From assembly GCA_038065055.1 (NCBI GenBank), contig JBBTRT010000007.1, positions 1-56,087 on the forward strand: 56,087 nt of DNA, given 5' to 3'. The position numbers and the translations under genes are program-made. This document shows, piece by piece, positions 31,870 to 54,690 of the stretch. Positions within the stretch are counted from its first letter, which is position 1; each line of letters starts with the position of its first letter. This stretch comes from Patescibacteria group bacterium. GTDB lineage: Bacteria; Patescibacteriota; Microgenomatia; UBA1400; CG1-02-47-37. The notes beneath the pieces are model-generated. The model saw nothing but the letters and a program-made list of their open reading frames with translations. It did not search any database and had not been told where the DNA came from.

Positions 31870-31909
31870 AAATTCAATTGGTAAAAACTTGTAAAAACCA
31901 AGGCCTGCC

Positions 31910-37261: not shown

Positions 37262-37271
37262 AATTAGGACA

Positions 37272-37300: not shown

Positions 37301-37303
37301 ACA

Positions 37304-38323
37304 TTAAGCAATCGCATCGCTAATCTGGCTGACATAGACACTGGCCGCCAAATTGGTAATGCTGGTGTAAGTCTCCAACGGCACATATTTAGGCGCCGAC
37401 GTGGCTTTTCTCACCCTTACCCGGATCACGTCGCTGTTGGTCGCCACGCCGGTAACCACTACCGTGGAAAGACTGGCGGTGCCGATGGCCAAAATAGCCG
37501 CGGAGGTCTCATCGTAAATTTCGTAGGTCGAACCCACCACCACGTTATTTAAGGTAATCGTCGCTAAATCCAAGGGGTATTGATAATCCTGGGCGGTCGT
37601 AGTTGAAATGGTTGTCAGATAAACGCTGGTGATAGCCGTGGCGTTAGTCGTACTCGTCGTGATTTCTAATTTCAGTTTAAAACCATTAACGGCGCTTATA
37701 CTGGCTTCACCGCTTAACGCCGTTCCCAGCGTGGTGGCTGTTTTACTTGCCGACCAAGCGCTAAATCCGTTGCCATCATTTTTATCTATTTGATAACGGT
37801 AAGTATAGTTAGTGGCTGTTCCTCCGGCCATGACTCCAGCCGTATTAGTAAATCCTGTATATCCAATAATGTATTCGGGTATGGTAAAGACGGCTATTTG
37901 ACCAACCGTTGGCATATACAGACCGCCGGCGCTGGTAAAAGCCGCCCCGCCGGATAAAGTCGCTTGTGAACTTGTCAGCGAGGTAGTTTCATTCATTATA
38001 ATAACGATTCTTCCGGCAGTAGTTGAAGTGTGGCAGTCAAAAAAGTGGGTTCCGTAAATACTGGTCGCGGCCGTGAGGGCCGGAACGCCGCCAATACCTT
38101 TACGGGTCAAATTCAACATATTATTTAAATCAGCGCCGTCAGCATAATCTGTAAACACATTTTCAAACGTAATTCTCGTAGATGAGTTGTCTGGCGAAGT
38201 AGCACTTACGTAGTAAATACCATTTAACCTTGTATTAGAACAATACACGCGCTGGACTTTTATGTATGTCAAGTACCGATTAGTCAAGCCTGGGTAAACA
38301 ACCAAGCCCAAAACGTCAGCCAA
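37304..38323 (-). pseudogene. 5'-truncated second copy (silent cassette?) of the fibre-like gene
   Basis: Homologous to the last approximately 335 aa of the 856-aa protein. It has no ATG; the ORF opens at TTG and the frame is open back to the ATPase TGA. No promoter was seen. Confidence 0.6.
37326..37684. repeat. 359-bp block 100 percent identical to 39646..40004 (direct repeat)
   Basis: Compared line by line with an offset of 2320. Identity ends abruptly at 37684/40004. Confidence 0.95.
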
Positions 38324-38380
38324 AAAATGACTGCCGCTTCCGATCCGTTTGACGATGAAGAAGATTAAAAACCGCCGGAA

Positions 38381-39583
38381 TCAATTGATAGCGGTGTAGG
38401 GAATATAATTAACTTTATTTTTTGCAACAATTTTGTTATCCACTAAAGATATTACAGTCTGACTGACAAATCTAGTTGACTTTTTAGTAAAATAATTCAT
38501 CCCTACGGCAAAAGCATCTTTGATCGACGCGGATAATTTAATTTCTATTAGATTAAGCCCGTTGTCCTCGATGACTAAATCAACCTCATGCCCTTCTTTG
38601 TCTCTAAGATAATAAATTGCTGGTTCTCTCCCTCTAAATAGATAGCTTTTGATAATCTCAGAAATTATGTAAGTTTCAAAAAACGCGCCCGGCATCGCCC
38701 CGGCTTGAAGCGCTTCCGGGGTCCCCCATTTAGTCAGATATGCAACCAGTCCGGTATCCAAAAAGTAAAGCTTGGGTGATTTGATAATTCTTTTGGTAAC
38801 GTTGGGAAAATATGGCCTTAATAGATAAATTTGCCGGGTGTTTTCCAAAATACCCAACCATTCAACCGCAGTGGTGGGAGATACCCCGCTATCTCTGGCT
38901 AAATCCGAAATATTTAATACCTGGCCTGTTCTGGCCGCACAAACCTGGATAAAACGATTAAATTCACTGGTTTTATTCACCCCGAAAATTCCCACCAAAT
39001 CCCTATCCAAATATGTTTGGATATAAGAATTAAAATATACTTCCCGGTTTGGGACCGGTTTTGATTGAAATATGGGAAAGCCGCCGGCAAAAATATCTCT
39101 GAATAGATCATTTATTTTAGGCTTTCGGTAAATACCGCCAAATGGGTATTTACCGGACATCCGGTCCAGATTTTTTTCCGCCATCGATAAACCAAGAATA
39201 TTTAATACTGCCACTCTTCCGGCAAGAGACTCCTGGATATTTCTGATTAAGCTGAATTGCTGTGAACCGGTCAACCAGAATTGCCCATTTTTGCCCGACT
39301 GATCAACAATTTTTTTTATCTGGGAAAAAAGCTCGGGGGCATATTGCACCTCGTCAATGATAGCCGGTAAAGGCAATTGCTGCAGGAATAAAGCCGGATC
39401 TTTTTGGGCTAATTCCCTTTGATTTAAATCATCCAAAGTAATATAGCTGAATTTTTTATTCTCGGCTAATTTTTTTAAAACTGTTGTTTTCCCTACCTGC
39501 CGGGGCCCGCCTAAAAACACCACCTTAAAAGTCTGGCTCGATTCCCAGATAACCGGTTCAATAAACCTAGGAATATATTTCAT
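38381..39583 (-). CDS. AAA+ ATPase with a DUF4143/PD-(D/E)xK-like C-terminal domain (copy 2)
   Basis: GGPRQVGKTT Walker A, IIDEVQ Walker B, HEVDLVI. Confidence 0.8.
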   Translation of the reverse strand: MKYIPRFIEPVIWESSQTFKVVFLGGPRQVGKTTVLKKLAENKKFSYITLDDLNQRELAQKDPALFLQQLPLPAIIDEVQYAPELFSQIKKIVDQSGKNGQFWLTGSQQFSLIRNIQESLAGRVAVLNILGLSMAEKNLDRMSGKYPFGGIYRKPKINDLFRDIFAGGFPIFQSKPVPNREVYFNSYIQTYLDRDLVGIFGVNKTSEFNRFIQVCAARTGQVLNISDLARDSGVSPTTAVEWLGILENTRQIYLLRPYFPNVTKRIIKSPKLYFLDTGLVAYLTKWGTPEALQAGAMPGAFFETYIISEIIKSYLFRGREPAIYYLRDKEGHEVDLVIEDNGLNLIEIKLSASIKDAFAVGMNYFTKKSTRFVSQTVISLVDNKIVAKNKVNYIPYTAIN

Positions 39584-39591
39584 ATATGACC

Positions 39592-39620
39592 ATTTTAAAC
39601 TATCACTTTAAATTAGTCAA
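39592..39620 (-). promoter_or_regulatory. sigma70-like promoter (TTGACT, 17 nt, TAAAAT), 8 nt before the ATPase ATG
   Basis: Read on the minus strand. Suggests a leaderless-type transcript. Confidence 0.45.
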
Positions 39621-39623
39621 GTT

Positions 39624-42194: not shown

Positions 42195-42198
42195 GAAT

Positions 42199-43248
42199 TT
42201 ATTTTAATGCTTTTTTTGAAATTTTTAACAGCTTTTTTACTTCCCGGTCAAAATCAGAGATGTAGTTTTTATCTTGTTTCTTACGGTATTTTTCAAATTC
42301 ATTTTCTGCTAAGGCGATTGCCACTTCATGGCTAATTTTCCCTTTATCTTGCAAAATATCTTCTTCATTAAACTGTAAAAAGACGTCTAACTTTTTTACC
42401 CAATCTTTCATCTTCATCGCAATTCCTTTTTTAGCTTGCATCTCCGCATAATCCAGATACATGGTGACAATCCTATTTAATTTATCCAGCTCTTTTTCGT
42501 CTAAATAGTTTTTAGCAATGATAACGTCTGTTTTTCGGATCAATCCTTTGGGCGCGTTTTTCCAAGTGGTTAGACCTAAATATGGTTTTTTATTTCCAAC
42601 TCGTTGATAAATAATTTCTGCAGCGGTTTGACCAGATATAGCAAAATGTAGTTTATTTTGTACTGTAGCAAAAAATTGTTTGGTTATTTCTTCGTTTGGA
42701 TCATAATCCAGACTACATTGGACATAAATATCGGTAATTTTTTGGTAAAACCTCCGTTCGCTCGAACGGATGTCTCTGATTCTTGCCAACTGTTCTTCAA
42801 AATAATCCTTGCCAAAAATGTTATGCGGGTCTTTTAGTTTTTCATCATTCATCGTAAAACCCTTGATAATGTATTCTTTCAGTCTTTCCGTTGCCCAAAT
42901 ACGAAAAAGGGTTGCTTGCCGGCTATTTACCCTGTAGCCAACAGATAGAATTGCATCAAGGTTGTAAAATAAGGTTTTGTACTTTTTGCCATCTTTGGCA
43001 GTATGTTCCAAAATGGAACTAACTGAATTTTCTTTTAGTTCGTTCGTCTCAAAAATATTTTTCAGATGCTTTGTTATTGCCGGTCGTTGAACCCCAAAAA
43101 GCTCCGCAATCTTCACCTGAGTCAACCAAACATTTTCATTGTGAAGAAATATCTCCACCTCTACTTTTCCATTGGGGGTAGTGTAGAGTAAAAAATCACG
43201 AACCTGAATCTTTGTATTTAGTTGATTCTTTACGTAAGTTGTGGCCAT
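42199..43248 (-). CDS. RhuM-family protein
   Basis: VWLTQVKIAELFGV...ITKHLKNIFE..EL.ENSV......TA.DGK.Y.T..YNLDAILSVGYRVNS..AT.FRIWAT.RLKEYIIKGFTM.DE.LK closely matches remembered RhuM sequences. Confidence 0.8.
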   Translation of the reverse strand: MATTYVKNQLNTKIQVRDFLLYTTPNGKVEVEIFLHNENVWLTQVKIAELFGVQRPAITKHLKNIFETNELKENSVSSILEHTAKDGKKYKTLFYNLDAILSVGYRVNSRQATLFRIWATERLKEYIIKGFTMNDEKLKDPHNIFGKDYFEEQLARIRDIRSSERRFYQKITDIYVQCSLDYDPNEEITKQFFATVQNKLHFAISGQTAAEIIYQRVGNKKPYLGLTTWKNAPKGLIRKTDVIIAKNYLDEKELDKLNRIVTMYLDYAEMQAKKGIAMKMKDWVKKLDVFLQFNEEDILQDKGKISHEVAIALAENEFEKYRKKQDKNYISDFDREVKKLLKISKKALK

Positions 43249-43251
43249 AGG

Positions 43252-43932
43252 TTATAACTTTAATTTTAACAAAAAAATCGTCTCCTGGATCAATTTGGTT
43301 TTCACCCAGGCTTTCATCTTATTGTCCAACAGCTCCCCCATGCCGTCTAAAATATTAGTTGGCGGTTTTTTCTCCAGTAAATTAAGGCATCTTTGCAGGT
43401 ATTTTTTTGGCTCTGTTTTAGTCCGCAATTTCAATAAAGCTTCATTTAAATCCCAATGATTATTTAACATAAACCAAATGTCAAAAATGTCCCTATGGGC
43501 CAATCTCTTTCTATCCAAAAGGGCGGTTAATTTGTTGGCAAACATATCCTCTGGTTTCATTACTAATGCCGGCTGGCCTAAATAATTTTTCATCTCATAC
43601 TGATTTCCAGCGCTTCTCTTGGAAATCTCGATTTTCAAATGATTCAATCCTTTTTGGTAACTTAACAGCCAAAACAAAGTGAAATATTTTTCCCTGCCCT
43701 CTTTTAAAACGCCATATTTATTAACGATTTTAGTTATTTTTTTAAAAACCAGGTCTTTTTTAGATTCATCAAGCAAATCAAAATCTAAATCTACGCTGAA
43801 ACGGGGCAAATCGTAAAAAAATTTAAGGGCAGTCCCCCCTTTAAAGCCCAACGCCGGACCGATAGTAATATCCGAGTAAATTTCTTTCACGATTTTAGTC
43901 ATTATCAATTGATGCGTAGAAATCTTTAACAT
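43252..43932 (-). CDS. AbiEii/AbiGii-family nucleotidyltransferase toxin
   Basis: FKGGTALKFFYDLPRFSVDLDFD motif. Confidence 0.8.
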   Translation of the reverse strand: MLKISTHQLIMTKIVKEIYSDITIGPALGFKGGTALKFFYDLPRFSVDLDFDLLDESKKDLVFKKITKIVNKYGVLKEGREKYFTLFWLLSYQKGLNHLKIEISKRSAGNQYEMKNYLGQPALVMKPEDMFANKLTALLDRKRLAHRDIFDIWFMLNNHWDLNEALLKLRTKTEPKKYLQRCLNLLEKKPPTNILDGMGELLDNKMKAWVKTKLIQETIFLLKLKL

Positions 43933-44485
43933 ATTTTCTAAACCTCCCTTTCATAGCCTTATTGTTATATATTTTTATCAAGTCTTCAGCTTTTCCCCAA
44001 TCAATTGGTTCTAAATTGTCAAAATAATAATTTTTAGATAAATAGATTCTGTCCAAAAAAGCTCTTTCCGCGCCGGCAATGGCATAACCGTTTTGGTTAA
44101 CTATGCCTTTCGAGTTAGTGAGTATTTCGTCTTTAATTTTTTTAAAGCTAATCGTATATTCTCCCAATTTTATTTCTCTTGTTTGATAACTTAAAACAAA
44201 AATAGTGTGACTATAATCCTGAAAAGTAATCCCGCTTCTTTGAAGAACCGTTTCCAAACTAATATATGAAGGGGTTAAAATCTTATTGGCCGCCTCCAAA
44301 ATTTCAAAATCGATGTTTTTCGCATAAAGACCTCTTTTTAAATTGATCAACCGGCCTTTTTTAACAAAATAATTGATTTTTGACTTCAACCGATTTAAGT
44401 TTGTTTCTCCAATAATTAAAGATATTTCTTGCGTAGTAAAAACTGTATTTTTTAATGAATATAAGCCAAAGGTAAGATTTTTCAT
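43895..44485 (-). CDS. AbiEi-like antitoxin/transcriptional regulator
   Basis: ...FVKKGRLINLKRGLYA wHTH pattern. Overlaps the toxin start. Confidence 0.7.
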   Translation of the reverse strand: MKNLTFGLYSLKNTVFTTQEISLIIGETNLNRLKSKINYFVKKGRLINLKRGLYAKNIDFEILEAANKILTPSYISLETVLQRSGITFQDYSHTIFVLSYQTREIKLGEYTISFKKIKDEILTNSKGIVNQNGYAIAGAERAFLDRIYLSKNYYFDNLEPIDWGKAEDLIKIYNNKAMKGRFRKYVKDFYASIDND

Positions 44486-44517
44486 TACTTCCAGCTTACA
44501 TTAACCTAAAATATTTG

Positions 44518-45648
44518 TCAAACAATCTCCCCGCCCCAAGTGTAATCATTAAATTGGGGCGACGGCTGCCGGCCAATCAGCCGGATCTTAGTTATTTTAG
44601 CTTTTTTTGCCAATCGGACCAGTGAATTAAAATCCTGACGGGTCGGAGTCTCTCGGATACCGATCCCCAGCCGTTTATCTGAAACAAAATCAATTTCCTG
44701 GCCGGTTTTTAAAGCATAATATTGCCACTTATCCAGCCCGGACAACTGATTATAAACCGTATTTTTAAACTGCGCCTCGCCTGATAACTCTGCCAGCGTG
44801 TTAACTAACCCGGTATCGCTGAAATACAGTTTTTTAGCTTTAACAATTTCCTGCTCTCCGCCGCTGGTATAAACCGGCACGGTTTTTATCAAATAACTAT
44901 TTTCCAACCTCTTCAAGTAGTCAGTTACCGTTGGCCGGGACAGCCCGGACAAACGGGCCAATTGGCTGATTTCTACCCGCTCATCCACCAACCCGGCCAG
45001 CAACTTCACCAAAGAATAAATTTTTTTCTCACTGGAAAATTCTGCGCCGGCGATAATTTCCAACAGTAAATCCCGCTTGTCCGCTTCTGCTCCGGCCAAA
45101 ACCACCTGGGGAAACCCGCCAAAACTAATATATTCTTCGTAAAAAACCGCTAACCGGTCATAATCGCCGGAATTAAAATTCCCCCGCCGCCAATCAGCTG
45201 TCAACGCCGGGATGCCTTTAAATTCCAGCCACTCTCCCCAATCAAGCGGCCGCAATTCAAACGGCTTGGCCACCAAACCGGCTAAGCTATCTGCCCGCGA
45301 TCCAATTAACACAAATTTTATCTGGTGGTGCTCGGTTAAATAGCCAATCACCTTAGCTAAATTAGGCAATAATTCCGCGTCATCCAAAGCTATTACCATC
45401 GGCCGGTCCAAGGTCAAGCCCCGATTAATAAAAATCTGCCTGATCGCGTCATAATTTGAATGTTCGAAAATCTCCCGGTTATCCGGCCGTTTTAAAGCTA
45501 GATAAAGTGAATTCTTGTTGCTGATTTCTTTTAAAGCTTGTTTCACCAAAACGGTCTTGCCGGTCCGCTTCATCCCCAACAACCCGGTAATTAAATTAGT
45601 CTGGATTTTATCCCTGAAAGCCGGGTAAATTTTCCTGGGTAAAAACAT
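44518..45648 (-). CDS. AAA+ ATPase with a DUF4143/PD-(D/E)xK-like C-terminal domain (copy 3)
   Basis: GMKRTGKTV Walker A, ALDDAE Walker B, QEIDFVS. The ATG at 45648 is preferred over the TTG at 45654. Confidence 0.8.
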   Translation of the reverse strand: MFLPRKIYPAFRDKIQTNLITGLLGMKRTGKTVLVKQALKEISNKNSLYLALKRPDNREIFEHSNYDAIRQIFINRGLTLDRPMVIALDDAELLPNLAKVIGYLTEHHQIKFVLIGSRADSLAGLVAKPFELRPLDWGEWLEFKGIPALTADWRRGNFNSGDYDRLAVFYEEYISFGGFPQVVLAGAEADKRDLLLEIIAGAEFSSEKKIYSLVKLLAGLVDERVEISQLARLSGLSRPTVTDYLKRLENSYLIKTVPVYTSGGEQEIVKAKKLYFSDTGLVNTLAELSGEAQFKNTVYNQLSGLDKWQYYALKTGQEIDFVSDKRLGIGIRETPTRQDFNSLVRLAKKAKITKIRLIGRQPSPQFNDYTWGGEIV

Positions 45649-45710
45649 ATGCAAGTTATACTTTACAAATAGTTTAACTTTTTGTCAAGTTATAGAGGAA
45701 AAAATTACTC

Positions 45711-45740
45711 TTGACACAGTCTAAAACCAAGGCATATACT
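45711..45740 (+). promoter_or_regulatory. sigma70-like promoter (TTGACA, 18 nt, TATACT) for the fibre-Tat operon
   Basis: Read directly. Lies in the divergent spacer shared with ATPase copy 3. Confidence 0.5.
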
Positions 45741-45765
45741 GAAATATTGAAGAATATAATCGGCT

Positions 45766-48189
45766 ATGTCTGATACTATTTTAACTGGCGATTTTACCAT
45801 TTATTACAGCGCTGAAAACCGGCAAAAACGGATTGTCTGGACCGGTTCGGCCACCGGCACCCGGACAGTTAACCAACTCTACTCCGCCCTCCAGGACTTA
45901 TTTGACGAACTAACCCAGATGGACGACGGCGTCCCCATGTCTGCCCAAACCCCGACCGAGTACACCATCGGCATCATCGACGCCGGTGATAAAGACCCCT
46001 GGTTTGTCGACCGGACCACGGTCGAGCATTTGACCGGCGGCGCTTTAAAAACCGCTTCCTGGGACCGGGTCACCACCACTAACACCGGTATTATTAAAGT
46101 CATCTGCAATAACACGGACATTGTCAGCGGCGACATCGGCCTGGATATTACCATCGGCACCAACACCGGTACGCTTTTGGATGTCAAAGGCACCGGCGCC
46201 GGCAGTATTCTTTGGATTAGGCCGGATTCCAATGCCGCCACTAACGACTTTGACGATGCCGGCACTTTAACCTGCAATGCCCACACCGCTGCCTGGACTT
46301 CAACCGCTTCGGCCGGCGAATCCTTATGGTCTAACATTTATACTTTAGGTACGATCGAAGCCAATACTCACCTTTATATCTCTCAAAATGGCGCCAATTT
46401 AGTCGCTTATAAAGACACCACCGACTGGTGGGCCGACGGCCACGTCGATATTTTAGTCAACGTTAAAGAATTAGGGGTGGAAACCGACGAAGGCTATATC
46501 ACCGTCGCCGCCCGACAATATAGTAAAACCTTTTCCTACTACATTGTCGACCTAACCAACGGCGGCCGGAACCCGATTCCGCTGCAAACCGGCAACGATT
46601 TAGACAACCAAACCGGCTTCTGGACATTTACCGGCTCGGCCGGATCCGCGCCCTTTACCGTCGGCGAAGTGATCTCTAAAGCCTCAACTGCCAAAAAAGG
46701 CGTCATTACGGCAATCGGCGGCACCACCGGCTCGCCGATTTTAACCTACTATTTAATCGGCGACCCAATCACCAACTTTGCTAACGGCGATACCAGTGTG
46801 ACCGGCGCCAGCTCCAGCTCCACCTGCACGGCCGGCACGCCCGCGGCCGCCGGACCGGCCGCTTTAGGCACGGCCCCGGTAATCGTCCACGGCGGTTTGA
46901 GCGACGGCGGCACCTATGATATTGACGAAAACGGCACCCCGGAAAACTATTCAATCGTCATTGACTGTAATCAAAACTCCCTGGCCAATGTTTATCAACA
47001 CTCAAAATACATTACCCGAAGAGGCGAAACAGTCACTACCAATACTGACGGCTTACAAGGTCAATTCTATGTTGGTTCTGACTATAGGCTCAGATATTCC
47101 GGGGTAATTACCGGCACCTTTTCTGAAGGTAATACTTGTACCCAGACCACGTCCGGCGCTAAAGGAACAATCGTCGAAGTCAACACGACCGATAAAATCG
47201 TCATCCTGCGTAATTCCAGAGGTACTTTTGACACCGCCAATATTGTTACCGACGATACTGCCGCGGGAACATTTACTCCAAATTCTGAAGCCTCGGCCGT
47301 GACCCCGATCGCCGCGGCTCCATTCGGCACTTTTGCCGGCGGCAAATTCTTCTGCGCCCCGGGCGTAGCTTTAACCGATTATCAAACCGGCGACGCCAAC
47401 AACTTTCAATTAGTCGACGACAACGGCACGGTCCGCGTCGCCCCTACCAAGGCCACGATTACCGTCAGCAACACCCGCGTTGGAGATAAAATTGCCGTTT
47501 TCCGCTTAACCGCTTCCGGCGGCGATATTAATAAAACCGAGTACAGCGCCACCGTCCAATCCCAAGCCGCCATAACCGCGGTTATGGGCGCGGCGATTAC
47601 CACCGACTCGCCGGGAAAGTCGGCCGGCGGCACCCTGCGCCTGGTGGATACCAGCGCCAACACCGAATACCGAATGCGGTTTTCCAGCTGGACCGCTAGC
47701 ACTTTTACTCTGGCTTATACTAACGTCGCTTCCGCCGACGCCGGCACGACCACCACTAATATTACCGAAACCGGCATCGGCACCGCCAGCCTGGTCGGTG
47801 ATTTAGTCTTAAACGTCACCCAAACAAACGCGGTTTCTTATGTGACTGCCATAGTTGACGCCAATAATGTAACGATTTCCCCGGCGATTACCGGCCAAAC
47901 CACCGCTGACAACATTAAATTCAACTGCTTACCGGTGGCCACCACCACCTCGCCGCAGGATTACTGGTACGTGCCGTTTATCGACGTCTACGAAACCACC
48001 GGCTCCAGCGGCACTCCCGGCACCGAAGCGGTCATTATCACCCACTCGGCCACTGACGCGGATATTTATATCCGGGTCCGCGCCCGGCAGGCCGGCAATA
48101 TCTTGCCGTTCGAACAAGATTCGAGCGTGGTCGGCGCCAACCCCACCACCGTCAGCGTCATTAGGACCGCCGATACTATCTTTACTTAA
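45766..48189 (+). CDS. 807-aa Thr/Gly/Ala-rich fibre-like protein, no signal peptide
   Basis: Long ORF. The C-terminal SPQDYWY...DADIYIRVRARQAGNILPFE aligns with TAQDYQY...SDVIRVRVRKATSAPKYVPLE of the 856-aa protein. Confidence 0.7.
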   Translation: MSDTILTGDFTIYYSAENRQKRIVWTGSATGTRTVNQLYSALQDLFDELTQMDDGVPMSAQTPTEYTIGIIDAGDKDPWFVDRTTVEHLTGGALKTASWDRVTTTNTGIIKVICNNTDIVSGDIGLDITIGTNTGTLLDVKGTGAGSILWIRPDSNAATNDFDDAGTLTCNAHTAAWTSTASAGESLWSNIYTLGTIEANTHLYISQNGANLVAYKDTTDWWADGHVDILVNVKELGVETDEGYITVAARQYSKTFSYYIVDLTNGGRNPIPLQTGNDLDNQTGFWTFTGSAGSAPFTVGEVISKASTAKKGVITAIGGTTGSPILTYYLIGDPITNFANGDTSVTGASSSSTCTAGTPAAAGPAALGTAPVIVHGGLSDGGTYDIDENGTPENYSIVIDCNQNSLANVYQHSKYITRRGETVTTNTDGLQGQFYVGSDYRLRYSGVITGTFSEGNTCTQTTSGAKGTIVEVNTTDKIVILRNSRGTFDTANIVTDDTAAGTFTPNSEASAVTPIAAAPFGTFAGGKFFCAPGVALTDYQTGDANNFQLVDDNGTVRVAPTKATITVSNTRVGDKIAVFRLTASGGDINKTEYSATVQSQAAITAVMGAAITTDSPGKSAGGTLRLVDTSANTEYRMRFSSWTASTFTLAYTNVASADAGTTTTNITETGIGTASLVGDLVLNVTQTNAVSYVTAIVDANNVTISPAITGQTTADNIKFNCLPVATTTSPQDYWYVPFIDVYETTGSSGTPGTEAVIITHSATDADIYIRVRARQAGNILPFEQDSSVVGANPTTVSVIRTADTIFT

Positions 48190-48198
48190 AAATAAATT

Positions 48199-48432
48199 AT
48201 GATTTATAAACGTTTTGAATTCTCTCAATCTTTAAACGGCCAACGGCTTCTCCATATTGCCCGCAACAGCGCCGGTATCGTTGTTTTTCGGGAAGAATCG
48301 GAAAACCAGCTTAAAAAAACCATTGATCAATATCTCAAACACAAACAAGAAGAAGAAGAATTGGCTAGCGCCAAAGCCACCCAAAAATTAGCGGAAAAGG
48401 CCAAGAAAAAAAAGAAAAGCTTTTTAGGATAA
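48199..48432 (+). CDS. small Lys/Glu-rich protein
   Basis: 77-aa ORF, 9 nt after the upstream stop codon. Confidence 0.45.
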   Translation: MIYKRFEFSQSLNGQRLLHIARNSAGIVVFREESENQLKKTIDQYLKHKQEEEELASAKATQKLAEKAKKKKKSFLG

Positions 48433-48438
48433 TCAAAG

Positions 48439-48666
48439 ATGACCGACCCGACTTTGCCGGTCACCAAAGAAGAACTGGACAATCTTAAAGAGATTCGCCG
48501 CTACGGAATTGAAGATTTGGAAAAATACCTAGTTAAAATCAAGAAAAATATCAGCGTCTTTGATGAAGCCATTGCCAAAGAAAACCAAGAAATGCAGCGG
48601 GTCCAAAACATGATTAAAGTTTTAGAAAACGACATTAAAGACGCCGATGACAAATTACATAATTAA
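48439..48666 (+). CDS. small coiled-coil protein
   Basis: 75-aa ORF with heptad-like charged composition. Confidence 0.45.
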   Translation: MTDPTLPVTKEELDNLKEIRRYGIEDLEKYLVKIKKNISVFDEAIAKENQEMQRVQNMIKVLENDIKDADDKLHN

Positions 48667-49366
48667 AACCCCTAAACCGGCCGAAGACCTCAAACGCATC
48701 AATGATTACTTTCTTACCTTCCTCGGTGAAATTAAACTGCCCCGGCTGGCTATCAAAGCTAAAAAACTTATTTTATCCTGTCCTGAAAACGATTCTGTTT
48801 CCGTTCCCCTGATTAGAAATTTGGGTTTGAGAATTTTTAATCCCCGCCTCAAAGCCTTTATTCCGGCTGACCCAAACATTTTGGAAGTCAACCAAACCAA
48901 CCCGATTTTTAAGCAATATCAATTAACTCCGATTTTTAGGTTTAACCACAGCCTCGTCTTTTTCTGCCGGGACAAAATCGGCCGAATTCACTTAGTCAAC
49001 CGCCACCTCCTGGAATATTTTTCCAGCAATCCTGCGCCCAACGTGGTGCGGGACAAAAATTTCAGCGCCGTCATCGCTAAAAATATCGCTACTTTTATTG
49101 CCCTAATTGACCGGGGTTTGATTCCTCTGGACTATTATCAGTACTCTAAAATAATCAATCTTTCCGGTTTAAATTTAACCAAAACCCTGAAAAAAATAAT
49201 CTACTTCCAGTTGGATGAGGTGAACCAAACCTTTATCCAAACCGGCCGGGAACTAACTAAAATCCCCAAAAAATACCTGGCAATTAAAGTCAACCAGGAC
49301 GTTAATTTCATCAAAAAATCTAACCGGCTGGTACCGCAACTAAACGTTTCGATTTTTTTAGCCTAA
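48647..49366 (+). CDS. hypothetical protein (239 aa)
   Basis: ORF overlapping the upstream gene by 20 nt. No recognised motif. Confidence 0.5.
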   Translation: MTNYIIKTPKPAEDLKRINDYFLTFLGEIKLPRLAIKAKKLILSCPENDSVSVPLIRNLGLRIFNPRLKAFIPADPNILEVNQTNPIFKQYQLTPIFRFNHSLVFFCRDKIGRIHLVNRHLLEYFSSNPAPNVVRDKNFSAVIAKNIATFIALIDRGLIPLDYYQYSKIINLSGLNLTKTLKKIIYFQLDEVNQTFIQTGRELTKIPKKYLAIKVNQDVNFIKKSNRLVPQLNVSIFLA

Positions 49367-49374
49367 AATAAGTT

Positions 49375-50670
49375 ATGGCCACTTTAACCTTTTTTAAAAC
49401 CGAACGGGTCATTCAAGTTGACTCTCCCCAAACCGTCATCACCATTCAGGATTTACTTAATCAAATCCGGCTCTACGAAGAACAGCCGATCAACCTCGAT
49501 TACGCCACCATCGCCAATGCCTACGGCAAACAGCCGCTGGGCGGCGGCTCGTACATCGGCATCACTCTGGAACTGATTAACGACTGGCGGATCGCTTTTG
49601 AAGCCCGGCCTGGTCCCAGTACAATTCTCTGCACCGCCTCCGGCGGCAACTTAGTTGCCATCAATAATTACAGCAATAACCCGATTAAACCCACCGCCTT
49701 TACCCAAATAGTCATTTCCCAATCGTCGTCGCCGACGATCATCCAAGCCGATCCTGACTACGCCACCCTCTATCTTTTGGAATCACTGCGCGGCCGCAAT
49801 AAATCCGTCGGCGGTATTTGGTACTGGAACCCAACCAGCGGCAGTGACGGCAGTGACGGCTTAACTCCGGCTAAAGCCGTCGCCACTTTTGCTAAAGCCC
49901 AAACCTTGGCTTCGGCCGGAACCGGCGATATTATTTTCGCTCTCGCAACGGCCGGCGGCGGCACCACTACGGTTACCGAAACTTTAAATATTACGAAAAA
50001 CAATTTAAAAATCCGCGGCGCCGGTTACGCCTTTCAGCTGGCCCCGGCCGTGGCCGGATCGCCAACCATCACCATCGGATCGGACAACGTCGAGGTCTCC
50101 GGTTTTTACCTGACTACTGCCGCCGGCGGCACTGACAACGGTGTCACTATTACCGGAAACAACACTCTAATCGAAGGCTGCTGGGTAAAATCAGCCACCG
50201 CCAACGGCATCGATCTGGCCGGCGCCGGCCGGACAACTATTGATACCTGCGCCGTTGAGTCCTGTGCCGGCAACGGCCTTAATCTGGGCGCCGGCACCAC
50301 TTTATCGAAAATCAAACAATGTATTTTAACCGGCAATCTCGACGGCGCCAACCTTGCCGGATCGGGCATCGCTGACAATATTTTTGAAAATAATTTAATT
50401 TACAATAATTCCGGCTACGGCATTGACATCGGTGCCGGGGTCGCTCGTACCGGCGTCCGTTTAAACCATACTTTTTCCGGCAACACCGCCGGGCCCACCA
50501 GAGACTTGGGCGCGGGCACCTTTATCGAAACCCAAGCCGGCGGCGCTTCGGCCACCGATATTGCCGACGCGGTTTGGGACGAAGTCATCGCCGGCCACGC
50601 CACCCCCGGCACTACCGCTCGGGTCCTTAAAGACGCTAAAATGAAAGCCACTATTGCCTCCCTAAGATAA
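49375..50670 (+). CDS. right-handed parallel beta-helix (PbH1 repeat) tailspike-like protein, no signal peptide
   Basis: Successive approximately 22-aa turns (NGVTITGNNTLIEGC / ANGIDLAGAGRTTIDTC / GNGLNLGAGTTLSKI / NNLIYNNSGYGIDIGAG). The C-terminal DIADAVWDEVIAGHATPGTTA motif is remembered from phage fibre proteins. Confidence 0.7.
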   Translation: MATLTFFKTERVIQVDSPQTVITIQDLLNQIRLYEEQPINLDYATIANAYGKQPLGGGSYIGITLELINDWRIAFEARPGPSTILCTASGGNLVAINNYSNNPIKPTAFTQIVISQSSSPTIIQADPDYATLYLLESLRGRNKSVGGIWYWNPTSGSDGSDGLTPAKAVATFAKAQTLASAGTGDIIFALATAGGGTTTVTETLNITKNNLKIRGAGYAFQLAPAVAGSPTITIGSDNVEVSGFYLTTAAGGTDNGVTITGNNTLIEGCWVKSATANGIDLAGAGRTTIDTCAVESCAGNGLNLGAGTTLSKIKQCILTGNLDGANLAGSGIADNIFENNLIYNNSGYGIDIGAGVARTGVRLNHTFSGNTAGPTRDLGAGTFIETQAGGASATDIADAVWDEVIAGHATPGTTARVLKDAKMKATIASLR

Positions 50671-50672
50671 CT

Positions 50673-51389
50673 ATGGACCAAGACAAAATCATCGCCAAAT
50701 ACCTGCCCTACCTCAAAGAAATCCAACAAAAACTCCTGCACGTTATCCTGGTCTTTTTTACTGCCGGCGCCATCGGCTTCATTTATTACCAAAAAATTAT
50801 CGGTTTAATCATGCGTATTTTTAAATTAGACGGCGTCAATATTGTCCTAACCTCGCCTTACCAATTCATCAACTTGGCCGTTAATTGCGGCCTGTTAATC
50901 GGCCTTATTTTTGCTTTGCCGCTTTTAGGCTACCACCTGGTTCATTTCCTCAAACCGGCCCTGAAAACCCGGGAATTCCGCCTCCTCACCCGGCTTTACC
51001 CGATTAGCCTGGTTTTATTTATTATTGGTTTTCTGTTTGGCGCCTGGATTATTCAGCTCGTGATCAGCCTTTACACCCAGGTTTCCCAACAATTTGCCAT
51101 TCAGAATTTATGGGATATTGGTAACTTTTTCTCCCAAATTCTCTCCACCGGCATTTTGATGGGGCTGGTATTTCAAATGCCGATTATTTTATTTGCCTTA
51201 TTGTCCCTAAAAATCATCAGTTTAGCCGGCTTAAAAAAATCCCGCAAATATGTTTATACCGCTATTCTTGTCTTTGTCGCCCTTTTGCCCCCCAACGACA
51301 TCATCTCTTTAATCGTCTTATCTATTCCCCCTTTACTTCTCTTTGAACTGACGCTAATATTATATCAATCATCAAGTAAGCAGTCATAA
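50673..51389 (+). CDS. tatC: twin-arginine translocase subunit TatC
   Basis: Six-TM profile with TSPYQFINLAV...ALPLL.YHLVHFLKPALKTRE and LPPNDIIS...PPLLLFE, characteristic of TatC. Confidence 0.88.
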   Translation: MDQDKIIAKYLPYLKEIQQKLLHVILVFFTAGAIGFIYYQKIIGLIMRIFKLDGVNIVLTSPYQFINLAVNCGLLIGLIFALPLLGYHLVHFLKPALKTREFRLLTRLYPISLVLFIIGFLFGAWIIQLVISLYTQVSQQFAIQNLWDIGNFFSQILSTGILMGLVFQMPIILFALLSLKIISLAGLKKSRKYVYTAILVFVALLPPNDIISLIVLSIPPLLLFELTLILYQSSSKQS

Positions 51390-51391
51390 TT

Positions 51392-51571
51392 ATGTTTAAA
51401 AATATCGGCACGCCGGAATTAATCGTCATTTTAATTGTCATCTTGGTTCTGTTTGGCGGTAAAAAATTGCCTGAGCTGGCCCGCGGCCTAGGTCTGGCCG
51501 GCAAAGAGCTAAAAAACGCTAAAAATGATCTGCAAAAAGCTATGAAAGATGAAAAGGGGGTGAGTAATTAA
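51392..51571 (+). CDS. tatA: TatA/E-family protein, copy 1 (59 aa)
   Basis: Hand translation: MFKNIGTPELIVILIVILVLFGGKKLPELARGLGLAGKELKNAKNDLQKAMKDEKGVSN. Absent from the ORF track (under 60 aa). Confidence 0.88.
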   Translation: MFKNIGTPELIVILIVILVLFGGKKLPELARGLGLAGKELKNAKNDLQKAMKDEKGVSN

Positions 51572-51717
51572 TGTTTAGAAACATCGGCACAACTGAAATC
51601 ATCATTATTGCAGTATTAATTATCATTCTGTTTGGCGGTAAAAAAATCCCCGAATTAATGCGGGGCATCGGCCAATCAATTAAAGAATTTAGAAAAGCCA
51701 GTAAAGAAAGGAGCTAA
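51571..51717 (+). CDS. tatA: TatA/E-family protein, copy 2 (48 aa)
   Basis: MFRNIGTTEIIIIAVLIIILFGGKKIPELMRGIGQSIKEFRKASKERS. Its ATG overlaps the copy 1 stop codon (TAATG). Confidence 0.88.
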   Translation: MFRNIGTTEIIIIAVLIIILFGGKKIPELMRGIGQSIKEFRKASKERS

Positions 51718-51718
51718 T

Positions 51719-51886
51719 ATGTTTGCTAATCTTGGCACTACCGAACTGATAATCATCGGGGTAGTCATCTTAGTCCTCTTTGGCGCTAAATTTCTTCCCA
51801 AAATGGGTAAAAATTTAGGCGAATCCAAGGTCGAATTTAAAAAAGCCACCAAAGACCTTAAAGAAGCTATTAAAGACAAAGAATAA
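51719..51886 (+). CDS. tatA: TatA/E-family protein, copy 3 (55 aa)
   Basis: MFANLGTTELIIIGVVILVLFGAKFLPKMGKNLGESKVEFKKATKDLKEAIKDKE. Confidence 0.85.
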   Translation: MFANLGTTELIIIGVVILVLFGAKFLPKMGKNLGESKVEFKKATKDLKEAIKDKE

Positions 51887-51892
51887 CTGCCT

Positions 51893-52039
51893 ATGTTTAA
51901 CAATATAGGCTTAGGCGAAATCATCGTTATTGCCCTAGTCCTGATGCTCTTTTTTGGCGGCGACAAACTGCCGGAACTGGCGCGGGGCATCAGAAACGCC
52001 ACCCGCGAATTCCGCAAAGCTCTTAAGGAGAAGAACTAG
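51893..52039 (+). CDS. tatA: TatA/E-family protein, copy 4 (48 aa)
   Basis: MFNNIGLGEIIVIALVLMLFFGGDKLPELARGIRNATREFRKALKEKN. Confidence 0.85.
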   Translation: MFNNIGLGEIIVIALVLMLFFGGDKLPELARGIRNATREFRKALKEKN

Positions 52040-52046
52040 GTCAACC

Positions 52047-54260
52047 ATGCCCTACCTGCTTACCCTCGCCTTTTTCCTCTTCGCTCCTCCTGTCTTAGCC
52101 GCTACTTATCAACAATGTACTACTTCTTCCACTTGCGTTATTGGCGAATTTTTATACGATGATGAATACCAGCCTCAAACCGACGCCATTTGTACTTTAA
52201 CCGCCAAATACCCTGATGGCAGCGATTTTTTAACTGCTTCTGCTTCTGCCGGAAGCAATGCTTGGTACTATTATGATGCCGCCATCGGCACCACTGAAGG
52301 CCTGTATCCGGCTAATCTCTGTTGCAGCTCGGACGCCGACTATTTATGCCTGGATAAATCCTTTGAAGTTAAAGCCGCGGCCGCGGCCGCCGCCGCGACC
52401 AGTTTAACCGCCGCCGACGTCTGGAATTACAGCTCCCGCTCCCTAACCAGTTTTGGCTCTTTAATTACCGACACCTGGAACCACTCCACCCGCAGCCTCA
52501 CTACTTTTGGCGACCTAATTTCTAATATTTGGAACTACTCTTCCGCCACTACCACTGCTCCGGCAGTTATTACCAATCTCGTCCAGGAGCAAACCGAACA
52601 GCGGGTTCTTTTGGAAAAATTGGTCAACACCCCGGTCGTCACCTTATCTCTGGATGAAGGCCAGTCAATCCCCGATTTAAACACTAAGCTTGAACAAAGC
52701 CAAATCCAGGCAAACGCTCTTTACGAATCGGTTCAAAACGGTAAAATTAACAATCCTGAACTGCTGGCTTTAGCCGACGTTTGGAACGCGCCGATCATCA
52801 TCGAACTCAATTTGGCTACCAGTCTTAAAAAGCTGACCCTGCTCGAAAAATTAGTGGGCCGGCCAAATGATGACAGCCAACAGCCAACCCTTTTTGGTTT
52901 TCTGTCTCAAATAAGCGAGAGGAATGAGTCCCTAAAAGCCGAAAACCAAAAATTAGCGGTCCTTTTAGACGGCTGGAACGGCCAAGGAGAATCAGGGCTG
53001 GAAAAAGCCATCAGCGCCAGCCGGAAACAAATTCTGGCTTTAAACGAATATCCTGGCGGCAGCCAACTGTTACAGCCGGCCAAAACCAGCCCCGACCGCA
53101 AACTCACTCTTAAAAATATTGTTTTTAACCTCCAGGCCCTGCTCGGTTTAAACCGTCAAATGCTTGCCGCCGCGCCCGGTGACCCGCTCCGCTCTCTTTG
53201 GCTGGAAGAAGGCAGTGTTATTTTCCGGGCGGCAATTTCTAATCCTTCCACCGTTATTTCTCAGACTGTCCCGTTAAAATTTTACTTGCCCCGGGAAATT
53301 AAAACCAATGACATTATTACCCTTGACCCCTCGCTCACGACTCAATATGACACCACTGAAGAAGCTTTGTATGTTACCGGCTCTTACACTCTCTTGCCAT
53401 TGGAAACAAAACTGGTTTTCATTGAAGTGCAAGACATCTGGCAGCTTTCCGAATCAGAAACTACCACTCTTAGAAAACAGGCAACCGAACTACTTCGCCC
53501 GCTGGAAAAAACCAGTTATTTTTCCCAAGGCACAGTCTTAAAATCCGAAATTGACGTTAATCTGGATAAAATCCTTCTGGCCCAAAATAAAGCCATTACC
53601 CCGGAAAACCGCATCCGCGCCTTCCGCGAAGCCCAGCTGGAACTTAATGGGGTTAATACCAACATCGATCGGCTTCAGGATTTAGTGGCCCAGGCCGCCA
53701 ACACCGGTTCGATTTTTGGTTTTGTCGGCGGCGTCCAAACCGTCGCCGTCTGGGGCATTTTACTGATTGTCATTGCCAGTTTTGTCTTTTTAACTATTTA
53801 TATGCGCCAGTTAAAATTGCCAGCGCCAAAAACCATTGCTGCCCCAAAATTACAGCCTATTTTTTGGTCTAAACCAGCCCTAATTCCCATCATCGTCATC
53901 CTGACTTCACTGGCCACGGTGTTAATCACCCAACTGCTCTTTAAGCCTAAAACCGCCGCTCCTCCCGCCATTCTGCAGGTAGCTGAACCGTCACCCAGCC
54001 CGTCCCTAAAACCCCAGGAAATTAAAATCAAACAGGAAAAACAAGTCTTGGGCGAATCCACTCCCCGCCGCCTGGCTGTTCCGGAAAACAGCAGCGTCAA
54101 TATTAGAAACAAACCCAGCCCTGACGCCCCCATCATTATGACTGTCAAAACCACAGTCGATGTTTTCGTCTTCATCGCCAAAGGCGATTGGTCACGGATC
54201 GATTTTAGCCCGACCGATACCAATCAATCCTGGTGGGTCAGCTCGCAATTTTTAGATTAA
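52047..54260 (+). CDS. 737-aa secreted/anchored protein: signal peptide, Cys-rich domain, tandem repeats, coiled coil, two TM helices, SH3b-like C-terminus
   Basis: MPYLLTLAFFLFAPPVLAA-TY signal. There are 8 Cys in the first approximately 110 aa and 54-nt repeats at 52416-52545. TM helices are VAVWGILLIVIASFVFLTIYM and LIPIIVILTSLATVLITQLLF. The C-terminal segment NIRNKPS..A.II......V.V.....DWSRI..........WWVSSQFL is SH3b-like. The ORF-track TTG start at 51954 overlaps tatA copy 4 and was rejected. Confidence 0.7.
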   Translation: MPYLLTLAFFLFAPPVLAATYQQCTTSSTCVIGEFLYDDEYQPQTDAICTLTAKYPDGSDFLTASASAGSNAWYYYDAAIGTTEGLYPANLCCSSDADYLCLDKSFEVKAAAAAAAATSLTAADVWNYSSRSLTSFGSLITDTWNHSTRSLTTFGDLISNIWNYSSATTTAPAVITNLVQEQTEQRVLLEKLVNTPVVTLSLDEGQSIPDLNTKLEQSQIQANALYESVQNGKINNPELLALADVWNAPIIIELNLATSLKKLTLLEKLVGRPNDDSQQPTLFGFLSQISERNESLKAENQKLAVLLDGWNGQGESGLEKAISASRKQILALNEYPGGSQLLQPAKTSPDRKLTLKNIVFNLQALLGLNRQMLAAAPGDPLRSLWLEEGSVIFRAAISNPSTVISQTVPLKFYLPREIKTNDIITLDPSLTTQYDTTEEALYVTGSYTLLPLETKLVFIEVQDIWQLSESETTTLRKQATELLRPLEKTSYFSQGTVLKSEIDVNLDKILLAQNKAITPENRIRAFREAQLELNGVNTNIDRLQDLVAQAANTGSIFGFVGGVQTVAVWGILLIVIASFVFLTIYMRQLKLPAPKTIAAPKLQPIFWSKPALIPIIVILTSLATVLITQLLFKPKTAAPPAILQVAEPSPSPSLKPQEIKIKQEKQVLGESTPRRLAVPENSSVNIRNKPSPDAPIIMTVKTTVDVFVFIAKGDWSRIDFSPTDTNQSWWVSSQFLD
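52416..52545 (+). repeat. approximately 2.4 copies of a 54-nt (18-aa) in-frame tandem repeat
   Basis: The Trp codons at 52422, 52476 and 52530 are exactly 54 nt apart. Units are DVWNYSSRSLTSFGSLIT, DTWNHSTRSLTTFGDLIS and NIWNYSS. Confidence 0.8.
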
Positions 54261-54690
54261 ATCCCGCGTGCATTAAAATTGCCGCGGCTAAACCTAGCCA
54301 CCAATACTTCTTTCCCCCGGCGTAAAAAACTAAACTGGTTGCTCCGTGCATCGGTACGGTTAATAACAGCCGCCGCCAAACCGCGCTAAAATTTCCCAGC
54401 CAATTAGCATTAACTAAAAACAGCATTGTTTCGCTTAAGCCAAACATTAAACCTAACCCCAATGCTTGCTGCCACTTTTCCGCTCGCCGGACAATAATCG
54501 CTTTCGCTATTTCTTCGACTATTGCCGGTAAAGGTAAAACCAACTCCACCAGCCAAACAATTAATGGTAATACCATCATTTGTAAAAACTCCATAAAACC
54601 ATCATAACAAAAAATTGTTGTTTTTACCAAATATATTACAACCCTATAACGATTACTATATACACTTAATAATTTCTTAAAAAATGCCAA
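54238..54690 (-). CDS. PrsW/CPBP-like intramembrane glutamic protease
   Basis: EEIAK (EExxK), FGLSE (FxxxE) and HAGFN (HxxxN) motifs on TM helices. The start may be the Met at 54594. The 3' end overlaps the convergent gene by 23 nt. Confidence 0.6.
   Translation of the reverse strand: MAFFKKLLSVYSNRYRVVIYLVKTTIFCYDGFMEFLQMMVLPLIVWLVELVLPLPAIVEEIAKAIIVRRAEKWQQALGLGLMFGLSETMLFLVNANWLGNFSAVWRRLLLTVPMHGATSLVFYAGGKKYWWLGLAAAILMHAGFNLKIAS

Follow-up and report, generated by a model that had tools for sequence, protein, structure and literature searches.

In Bacillus subtilis a dedicated twin-arginine translocation (Tat) translocase, tatAd-tatCd, is encoded beside its cargo phoD. The present analysis concerns a Tat locus on contig JBBTRT010000007.1 (assembly GCA_038065055.1) of a Patescibacteria group bacterium of the Microgenomatia; the whole stretch of DNA analysed, 56,087 nucleotides (nt) long, is called the window below. 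Between positions 45766 and 54260, tatC and four tatA genes share a compact operon with two large proteins, g1 and g5, that have relatives among tailed phages, while a third such protein (g0) and a small protein with an internal twin-arginine signal (RRp) are encoded upstream.

Other described systems resemble parts of this locus. Dual Sec/Tat integration is known from the actinobacterial three-helix Rieske proteins, whose integration takes Sec first and Tat afterwards (Tooke et al. 2017, PMC5449189; Keller et al. 2012, PMC3471235). In hitch-hiker Tat export, as outlined in PMC10924467, a heterodimer crosses the membrane on the signal of one partner. Haloarcula hispanica assembles a surface structure, the Tat-fimbriae or tafi, in a Tat-dependent manner, its major subunit bearing a Tat signal and being predicted to form a donor-strand filament (PMC11821415). 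Finally, PblA and PblB of the Streptococcus mitis phage SM1 reach the cell wall via holin- and lysin-mediated permeabilisation and act as adhesins (PMC2920869). We found no description of the present cluster in the searchable literature.

Conservation of the tat neighbourhood

Gene content and order indicate that the operon makes up the downstream half of a chromosomal neighbourhood, which is conserved across Microgenomates. Comparative genomics establishes that this neighbourhood joins a canonical TatAC, an unusual predicted Tat cargo, cell-only membrane proteins and three proteins apparently captured from phage virions. Its genes appear to form three layers: a cell-only layer of tatC, several tatA, RRp with its small membrane partners, g11 and a PrsW-like gene; a layer of large signal-less proteins with phage-virion relatives (g0, g1 and g5); and a layer of lineage-specific small genes (g2-g4). 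The interpretation that we prefer, at a probability of roughly 0.4, is that they make up an envelope apparatus in which Tat would export RRp and would place the folded phage-type proteins outside the membrane, perhaps piggy-backing on RRp. The features of the window on which this interpretation is built are as follows, protein lengths being in amino acids (aa).

32581-33213, + strand: RRp, 210 aa, with an internal twin-arginine signal, 12.5 kb upstream of g1
39624-42194, - strand: g0, a phage-type protein of 856 aa
45711-45716 and 45735-45740, + strand: sigma70-like promoter, TTGACA and TATACT with an 18-nt spacer, called from the consensus match only
45766-48189, + strand: g1, 807 aa, all-beta, multidomain and phage-virion-derived, without a signal peptide
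48199-48432, + strand: g2, 77 aa with a Lys-rich tail
48439-48666, + strand: g3, a coiled-coil protein of 75 aa
48647-49366, + strand: g4, 239 aa, present only in the window's own g1 clade
49375-50670, + strand: g5, 431 aa, an N-terminal domain of ~170 aa and a right-handed beta-helix of the phage tailspike type, without a signal peptide
50673-51389, + strand: tatC (PF00902)
51392-51571, 51571-51717, 51719-51886 and 51893-52039, + strand: four tatA genes (PF02416)
52047-54260, + strand: g11, 737 aa counted from the ATG, anchored, with a Sec-type signal peptide
54238-54594, - strand: PrsW/CPBP-like small membrane protein with EExxK and HxxxN motifs

A first-pass annotation of this DNA, made from its letters alone, had described eleven same-strand genes with gaps of -20 to +9 nt behind a sigma70-like promoter. 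The open reading frame (ORF) listing bears this out for every gene (+ strand, 45766-54260, the same range of gaps), and the promoter is the top sigma70-type match across 45.5-54.8 kb, agreeing with the consensus at 11 of 12 positions; sites at this match level are abundant (22 seen versus 11 expected in the scan). No convincing + strand terminator was found inside the operon. Where that annotation went astray was in taking the eleven genes for the whole unit: the actual unit is larger and is split in the window by toxin-antitoxin and defence islets. Also missed were g0, its truncated copy g0', the PrsW-like gene and RRp, a canonical Tat substrate. The window itself is chromosomal, carrying nusG, sugar-nucleotide enzymes, mreB, tsaD, tsaE, ndk and galK, together with a ribosomal protein L11/L1/L10/L7 cluster that was assigned by position and not scanned; the same contig is present in the Hainich H52 groundwater assemblies.

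Relatives of g1 occur at 69 loci of a species-level genome collection, one locus per species. Eight of these were set aside as not being of the candidate-phyla type (archaea, Desulfarculales, Bacteroidales, Gemmatimonadota), and of the 61 remaining, the 44 with at least 9 kb downstream of the g1 start are used for the counts. Gene maps of the relatives are based on tblastn with the window proteins, which under-detects diverged small genes (g2-g4); 10 kb on each side of each anchor were covered, and "absent" means not within 10 kb. The lineage of loci was judged by gene content and named records only, and transmembrane (TM) helices were called with a simple hydropathy window and AlphaFold2 (AF2).

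In 42 of the 44 cellular g1 loci (95%) tatC is present, down to a g1 identity of 32%; g5 is found in 39, g11 in 31 and the PrsW-like gene, adjoining tat or g11, in 29. By contrast, tatC, tatA, g11, the PrsW-like gene and RRp occur in none of 48 viral g1 loci. The lack of a conserved tatAC linkage was what the first-pass annotation had named as fatal to its proposal, and these counts show the linkage to be conserved in cells; with flanks that carry no hallmark genes, they also agree with its view that this is not an ordinary prophage module. The reverse comparison, anchored on TatC in metagenome contigs, gave 20 dereplicated loci flanked by 3 kb or more on either side, of which 14 have g5 directly upstream and 14 have g11 and the PrsW-like gene. 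Two distant genomes (71% and 55% g1 identity) possess orthologues of all eleven genes and of the ORF at 54238-54594 with the order unchanged; their flanks differ and are free of phage hallmarks. The gene order is kept across several candidate phyla of Microgenomates. In most cellular loci g0-type proteins, recognised by C-terminal-domain matches, lie directly upstream of g1 on the same strand.

The full extent of the neighbourhood is best seen in a Beckwithbacteria locus (L008), where the order is SH3-TM, HTH-TM, RRp, CHASE, 4TM, g0-like, g1-g5, tatC, tatA, g11 and PrsW-like, with one minus-strand AAA_14-type gene as the sole interruption. The window matches L008 in both gene set and gene order, except that AAA_14/AbiEii/RhuM islets intervene and g0 is inverted. 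The upstream members in the window, and the truncated copy of g0, are these.

31290-31844, + strand: SH3_3-TM protein, named from Pfam
31910-32266, + strand: HTH_17-TM protein, named from Pfam
32263-32577, + strand: paralogue of the RRp N-terminal hairpin, assigned by position and sequence inspection
33266-34171, + strand: CHASE-domain membrane protein, 3' of RRp (PF03924, E = 2e-27)
35474-35968, + strand: 4TM, a 164-aa polytopic membrane protein, 61% identical to its L008 orthologue
37304-38323, - strand: g0', a 339-aa truncated paralogue of the C-terminal part of g0

The L008 orthologues of the upstream membrane genes (31290-32577) are 53-65% identical with their order kept, and the CHASE protein lies at the same position there (61% identity); the ORF at 32263-32577 had no tblastn match to the 3TM family. 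The 4TM family was found in 41 loci, none of them viral, and RRp, 4TM, HTH-TM, the RRp N-terminal paralogue, g11 and the PrsW-like protein never occur in viral loci. A further cell-only family of ~170-200 aa (N-terminus M.I.DING..R.C...), which is not in the window, lies between RRp or g0 and g1 or g5 in 24 loci; examples are L032 9137-9655, L041 2135-2692, L056 8250-8762 and L168 8805-9404.

RRp, a candidate Tat cargo

A strict twin-arginine motif scan of all cellular loci (2.1 Mb) yielded RRp as the sole recurrent ORF family; the motifs in other ORFs of the window were spurious (one ribosomal-protein ORF, the rest antisense ORFs). RRp consists of two TM helices, a linker, the internal twin-arginine signal DRDRRLFLKLIGSTGLSLFFMSLVSKEAQA with DRRLFLK, a hydrophobic h-region, an AxA site and a C-domain of ~100 aa. 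The sequence across the signal reads ...ISDRDRRLFLKLIGSTGLSLFFMSLVSKEAQA/TFFGSMPGPG..., where the S-R-R-x-F-L-K consensus precedes an h-region rich in G/S/T, a c-region Lys and the AxA site; the Tat motif is defined as S/T-R-R-x-F-L-K (PMC7317946). The family consensus is D-x-x-R-R-L-F-L-K-L-I-G...K-x-A-x-A. In the alignment R85, F87 and A110 (of AxA) are invariant and R84, K89 and L90 at least 90% conserved, some members having KR in place of RR. In total 181 homologues were detected, matched over the full 210 aa, and in nearly all of them the N-terminal hairpin with its PLxxYF motif stands in frame ahead of the signal. From its sequence, RRp is predicted to be a canonical though unusual Tat cargo.

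In the AF2 model RRp has helices at 2-23, 29-49 and 81-104, with pLDDT above 89 for the N-terminal helices, and a four-strand beta-meander at 144-187. The C-domain matches no Pfam or NCBIfam family and has no Cys/His cluster, and a fold search with RRp gave no match. The invariant FFGSxPGPGT...IDPAExxPTDGY stretch (residues 112-142) is disordered or of low confidence in the model, and the same holds for residues 59-70 of g1, which are likewise invariant. Both stretches are possible contact surfaces, as this is the behaviour expected of segments that become ordered only on binding.

The RRp family is restricted to cells, a hidden Markov model giving 36 matches in cellular loci and 0 in viral loci. 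Of the 61 cellular genome loci, 21 have an RRp relative no more than 10 kb from g1 or tatC, as do many TatC-anchored loci. In four loci that have neither g1 nor g5 (L161, L181, L184, L200) RRp is 1-2.5 kb from tatAC, the order in L161, L184 and L200 being tatC, (tatA), ..., RRp within ~2.3 kb. Elsewhere it stands next to the phage-type genes: it ends 10 nt before a g0 paralogue in L001, and in L168 it is followed successively by a small conserved protein, the g5 N-domain, tatC and tatA. The first-pass annotation had suggested g1 and g5 themselves as the exported proteins while observing, rightly, that they have neither a Sec nor a twin-arginine signal (no hydrophobic N-terminus and no motif). 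Given that lack, and since RRp stays with tatAC where g1 or g5 is missing, the genomics points to RRp as the probable cargo. The suggested hitch-hiker export with a partner fares better in that RRp, within the same conserved neighbourhood, is a candidate for the partner; that g1 and g5 are its passengers is only our inference.

The translocase itself had been recognised correctly. TatC matches PF00902 at E = 1e-39 over profile positions 2-208 of 208, and the NCBIfam models TIGR00945 and TIGR01912 below their equivalog cut-offs; a crude hydropathy count gives 4-6 helices for the cluster TatC orthologues. Each of the four TatA paralogues matches PF02416 (E 1e-13 to 1e-16), and the first of them (51392-51571) is above the TIGR01411 cut-off. 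Across 42 cluster TatCs E16 is at least 90% conserved and E101 invariant; from the motifs hLxExR and PALxxxE we take these to be the signal-binding glutamates E15 and E103 of Escherichia coli. The glutamates that bind the twin-arginine pair are thus retained and the translocase should therefore read ordinary signals. Two further tatC loci (L213 20-8158; L218 12-3587) lack RRp, g1, g5 and g11 and lie beside proteins of 1,000-1,500 aa, one of which in each locus begins with Ser/Pro/Ala repeats (L213 20-3058, L218 12-3587); genes that look by eye like those of type IV pili are found 3' of L218 12-3587.

Phage relatives of g0, g1 and g5

A scan of viral contigs found 67 loci with g1 relatives, up to 59% identical over their full length, and in 42 of the 48 with enough flank a g5-like gene follows g1. 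These loci belong to tailed phages: terminase, portal, capsid/major-head and virion-protein PHROG families are among 99 ORFs sampled from g1-bearing viral loci; L082 has a capsid gene 5 kb ahead of g0-g1-g5, and L086 has a portal gene. The phage protein of 933 aa that directly precedes g1 in L082 shares 39% identity with the window g0 over 728 aa, and a Desulfarculales prophage has a 459-aa g1 relative between its tape-measure region and its minor tail proteins. No match to g1 or g5 was found in GenBank phage genomes, and the phage relatives of these two proteins are known from uncultivated viral contigs only. By their homology, g0, g1 and g5 appear to derive from virion modules of uncultivated tailed phages and to have been captured by the cell. 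In a rough distance-based neighbour-joining (NJ) tree the Tat-linked/cellular g1 clades are intermixed with the viral ones, a sign that g1 may have passed between phages and cells more than once.

Once in cells, the three genes have apparently been kept under strong purifying selection. The ratio of nonsynonymous to synonymous substitution rates (dN/dS) against the nearest relatives is 0.13 for g1 and 0.10 for g5 (about 0.1), with 0.11 for tatC, 0.125 for g11 and 0.17 for g4. Towards the Woesebacteria locus L005, at which distance synonymous sites are saturated, g1 is 85% and g5 70% identical, compared with 45% for TatC, 41% for RRp, 33% for g11 and 32% for 4TM. For phage biology the interest of the case lies in virion proteins that, once fixed in a host lineage, have changed more slowly than its own membrane proteins.

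The protein g1 has more than 921 homologues, the best 120 of them, at 54-88% identity, being from Beckwith-, Woese-, Levy-, Roizman- and Blackburnbacteria and WWE3. Neither g1 nor g4 matches a Pfam, PHROG, NCBIfam or PADLOC family. The AF2 model of g1 is a string of small beta domains (pLDDT 80, pTM 0.61), for which Foldseek found nothing in the PDB below E = 1e-3, and a profile search of PDB sequences also found nothing; in BFVD there were only matches of low TM-score (~0.1) to large phage structural proteins, which are suggestive, not diagnostic. The alignment shows g1 conserved over its entire length, and this does not look like the pattern of a receptor-binding fibre. The description of these proteins as phage fibre- or tailspike-like in the first-pass annotation is accordingly right about homology, with full-length tailed-phage relatives of g1, g5 and g0, and less apt for g1 in its conservation. 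A reading of g0 and g1 as surface-layer proteins was set aside, since neither has a signal peptide or a wall-binding module and both have phage homologues.

No signals were seen on g0, g1 or g2-g5, there being no hydrophobic N-terminal segment or RR motif in g0, g1 and g5; the conserved NRQKR at residues 18-22 of g1 is followed by no h-region. Free-standing 80-aa proteins like the g1 N-terminal domain lie just upstream of g1 in L003 (9611-9853; E = 1e-8 to that domain and a weak g5 match, E = 9e-4) and L008 (8543-8791; 28% identity to g1). In one clade (L054, 3029-11803; L055, L057, L058) giant members of the g1 family of ~2,900 aa stand beside tatC and tatA, with the g1 N-domain near residue 2,300.

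The beta-helix that had been noticed in g5 is a PF13229 match above threshold (E = 3e-9, 37.2 bits versus 25.9), a match to a PHROG tail-spike being not significant (E = 0.07); neither g5 nor g0 has sequence relatives in the PDB. Orthologues of g5 are 63-85% identical and lie directly upstream of the tat genes. In two clades (L056 12386-12913; L168 9408-9929) g5 is reduced to its N-terminal ~175 residues, without the beta-helix, and yet keeps its position next to tat or g11; possibly it is the N-domain that ties g5 to the translocase. The truncated g0' matches the last 313 residues of g0 (544-856) at 79% identity, and this spare copy might serve as a recombination cassette or be the result of decay.

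Of the small genes, g2 has orthologues of 132-134 aa at the same position in L001 and L003 and an occasional tblastn match in a viral locus (L087). In the same two loci g3 has orthologues that are 64-66% identical; its Pfam matches are weak and coiled-coil only. The g4 orthologues have 277-290 aa and 34-38% identity.

The membrane proteins downstream of tatA

The first-pass annotation of g11 as a protein with a signal peptide, a Cys-rich domain and two TM helices holds by simple hydropathy scan (signal peptide 1-19, six Cys in the mature N-terminal domain, TM 563-581 and 612-630, the latter two forming a hairpin), and there is also a coiled coil and three WNYSSRSLT repeats. Its SH3b-like end is less secure: the C-terminal SH3_3 match is sub-threshold in the window copy (21.9 bits versus 27) and is listed for the L003 orthologue. 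Apart from it, g11 matches no Pfam, PHROG, NCBIfam or PADLOC family. Among homologues with 48 distinct N-termini the signal peptides are K-rich, Sec-type and end in AxA, with RR in ~4 only, and a conserved YQQC...GEFLY domain follows the AxA site. A twin-arginine signal created by an upstream TTG start (51954; an RRR extension that overlaps tatA4) was considered and rejected, as the homologues are Sec-type and the ATG at 52047 has a ribosome-binding site, AAGGAG, 14 nt before it. From these signals g11 is best classed as a Sec substrate.

Residues 124-176 of g11 (52416-52574) comprise three tandem units of ~18 aa, D(V/T/I)WN(Y/H)S(S/T)RSLT(S/T)FGxLI, and the C-terminus of g5 (about 50540-50610) has a similar unit, DIADAVWDEVIAGH...ARVL, which hints at a structural element shared by the two proteins. 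For the PrsW-like protein Pfam gives nothing in the window copy and, in its L003 orthologue, a weak match to PF13367. PADLOC and NCBIfam supply no names for g0, g1, g4, g5, g11, the PrsW-like protein or RRp, PADLOC giving only sub-threshold coiled-coil noise for g3.

Other features of the window

For a small genome, the window is unusually rich in genes of the toxin-antitoxin and abortive-infection types (16424-17059, 17064-19839, 34182-35486, 38381-39583 and 42199-45654), which comprise MNT/HepT, several AbiEii with DUF6922 partners, three AAA_14-DUF4143 ATPases and RhuM. A duplicated, rearranged stretch at 35940-45654, with two AAA_14/DUF4143 and AbiEii sets, RhuM and g0' (37304-38323), interrupts the neighbourhood, which runs on uninterrupted by it in L008. 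The G+C content rises to 0.49-0.54 over 45000-48000 (g1), compared with 0.36-0.45 in the flanking islets; because the whole operon stays at 0.44-0.50, the rise fits the Thr/Gly/Ala-rich composition of g1 better than a recent transfer. A 967-aa protein at 13159-16062 (- strand) matches no Pfam family and has no relative in any fetched locus.

What the neighbourhood may do

In the preferred interpretation, Sec or YidC would insert the first two helices of RRp, TatC would read its internal S/T-R-R-x-F-L-K signal and TatA oligomers would pass the folded C-domain outward; the h-region would either stay in the membrane as a third helix or be followed by AxA cleavage. The phage-type proteins would fold in the cytoplasm, as is usual for such proteins during infection, and would reach the outer face of the membrane Tat-dependently, most plausibly as RRp-bound passengers. 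RRp and/or g11 would then hold them on the envelope, with the SH3b-like end of g11 binding the wall, and the cell surface would thereby bear a fixed set of proteins of phage type that bind or depolymerise. We favour Tat-dependent placement because g5, or its N-domain alone, is persistently immediately upstream of tat, and because such proteins must fold and oligomerise before export and a signal-bearing partner is present. In this scheme the export of g0, g1 and g5, the contact between RRp and its passengers, the surface function and the dual Sec/Tat insertion of RRp are all steps that we infer from the sequences. The most specific form of the proposal, in which a dedicated Tat carries signal-less phage-derived fibre or spike proteins on a membrane-tethered RRp to make a permanent surface binding or depolymerising apparatus, strikes us as rather doubtful as a whole. 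The role of such proteins as adhesins of an episymbiont, put forward in the first-pass annotation, is a conjecture.

Several observations weigh against the preferred interpretation. First, g0, g1 and g5 carry no export signal and may never leave the cytoplasm, and a g1 trimer, if g1 is fibre-like, would be of ~260 kDa and exceed the well-studied Tat cargo. Second, RRp is not within 10 kb in 30 of the 44 g1 loci and, as some Tat-RRp loci have neither g1 nor g5, it is separable from these; nor does RRp seem to be a recognisable stand-in for a phage attachment site, as the viral loci have no RRp-like domain. Third, the conservation of g1 over its whole length would suit an enzyme or a structural lattice equally well as a fibre, and the fold searches with the predicted g1 and RRp found no match among solved structures. 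Lastly, promoter, operon structure and every membrane topology are as predicted by computation.

The alternative that survives best, which we consider possible but on the whole unlikely, is that Tat serves RRp only (together with other twin-arginine proteins elsewhere in the genome) and that g0, g1 and g5 are co-regulated neighbours that work without Tat. RRp is the sole canonical cargo found and stays with tatAC where g1 and g5 are absent, a separability that this alternative explains; TatC retains the residues that read a twin-arginine pair; and g1 and g5 have no signals. What it leaves unexplained is that in most lineages the gap from g5, or from its N-domain, to the tatC or tatA gene behind it measures between 2 nt and a few hundred nt, and that 95% of cellular g1 loci keep tat within 10 kb despite changing flanks. 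In one version of it, also tentative, the phage-derived proteins would bind or modify the cell's own envelope glycans and mask or decoy phage receptors, as a domesticated superinfection exclusion, being freed by leakage or lysis or else acting from inside. The interleaved g1 clades of the rough NJ tree, which suggest repeated exchange with phages that probably infect these cells, fit such a role, as does the richness in abortive-infection and toxin-antitoxin genes around the cluster. Nevertheless, the cluster has no holin or endolysin and no PADLOC family match, and the very slow evolution of g1 is the opposite of that usual for arms-race proteins.

A weaker alternative is that the phage-type proteins are parts of a domesticated phage-like particle, akin to a gene transfer agent or a tailocin, whose head and tail genes are elsewhere in the genome, the tat linkage being incidental. 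The homologues are indeed virion-module genes, and their purifying selection and wide vertical distribution would suit a particle; moreover, the Rhodobacter gene transfer agent has dispersed fibre and spike loci. Yet phage head and portal proteins used as queries found no match in any cellular locus. The window gene products scanned against Pfam include no capsid, portal, terminase, tape-measure or integrase, in line with what the first-pass annotation had said of phage hallmark genes; the Pfam listings of L001 and L003 have none of these five types either; and no sheath, tube or baseplate genes are present in the window or in the cellular loci whose Pfam listings were inspected. With the 95% tat linkage and the cell-only membrane partners also left unexplained, we regard the particle as improbable. 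Weakest of all is a decaying prophage remnant or a chance juxtaposition without function, which the phage homology of g0, g1 and g5 and the truncated g0 copy and mobile islets nearby might suggest, but which is scarcely credible with ORFs intact in well over 100 genomes and metagenome contigs, dN/dS of about 0.1, a gene order conserved across several candidate phyla of Microgenomates and no integrase seen.

If the most specific form of the proposal is true, phage proteins would have been domesticated by a new route, and Tat would have gained a new class of passenger. To Tat research the cluster offers a predicted cargo that has an internal signal and is apparently neither a redox nor a cofactor protein; very large passengers may be a further offering. 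The Microgenomates are a large uncultivated group with tiny genomes, and their dealings with their envelope and their neighbours are largely unknown; the cluster supplies a genomic context and a testable job for several unnamed families. The families enriched in this group are mostly hypothetical and often membrane-bound (PMC6744442).

Comparison with known systems

The arrangement is like that of B. subtilis tatAd-tatCd and phoD in that a minimal TatA/TatC adjoins a twin-arginine protein (L161, L184, L200). It differs in that RRp is small, of no known family and internally signalled rather than an N-terminally targeted enzyme, in that phage-type genes lie between cargo and translocase in most genomes, and in having up to four tatA. 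As in the three-helix Rieske proteins, the predicted hydrophobic helices of RRp precede a last, Tat-signal-like helix, which is followed by a globular C-domain. Unlike them, RRp has no detectable cofactor-binding domain, and a conserved AxA follows its h-region, so that the domain may be released rather than anchored; its candidate-phyla lineage is not known to have respiratory complexes.

The tafi of H. hispanica are likewise made by a gene cluster for a surface structure with Tat dependence, which here is proposed from the genes. They have no phage relationship, and no sequence link to g1, g5 or RRp was found, no direct test having been made. Hitch-hiker export, as in the small and large subunits of hydrogenase, offers the likeness of signal-less folded proteins encoded beside a signal-bearing partner and Tat; the putative passengers here differ from hydrogenase subunits in being 431-856 aa long, probably oligomeric, of phage origin and not redox enzymes, and their complex with RRp is hypothetical. 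With PblA and PblB the locus shares signal-less proteins of the phage structural-gene kind that are used by the cell; whereas those belong to an intact prophage, the genes here are chromosomal, with no prophage, holin or lysin, and are linked to Tat. None of the tatAdCd-phoD, Rieske, PblA/PblB and tafi systems combines the three features that come together in this neighbourhood: a canonical Tat translocase, an unusual cargo beside it and virion proteins that appear to have been captured from phages.

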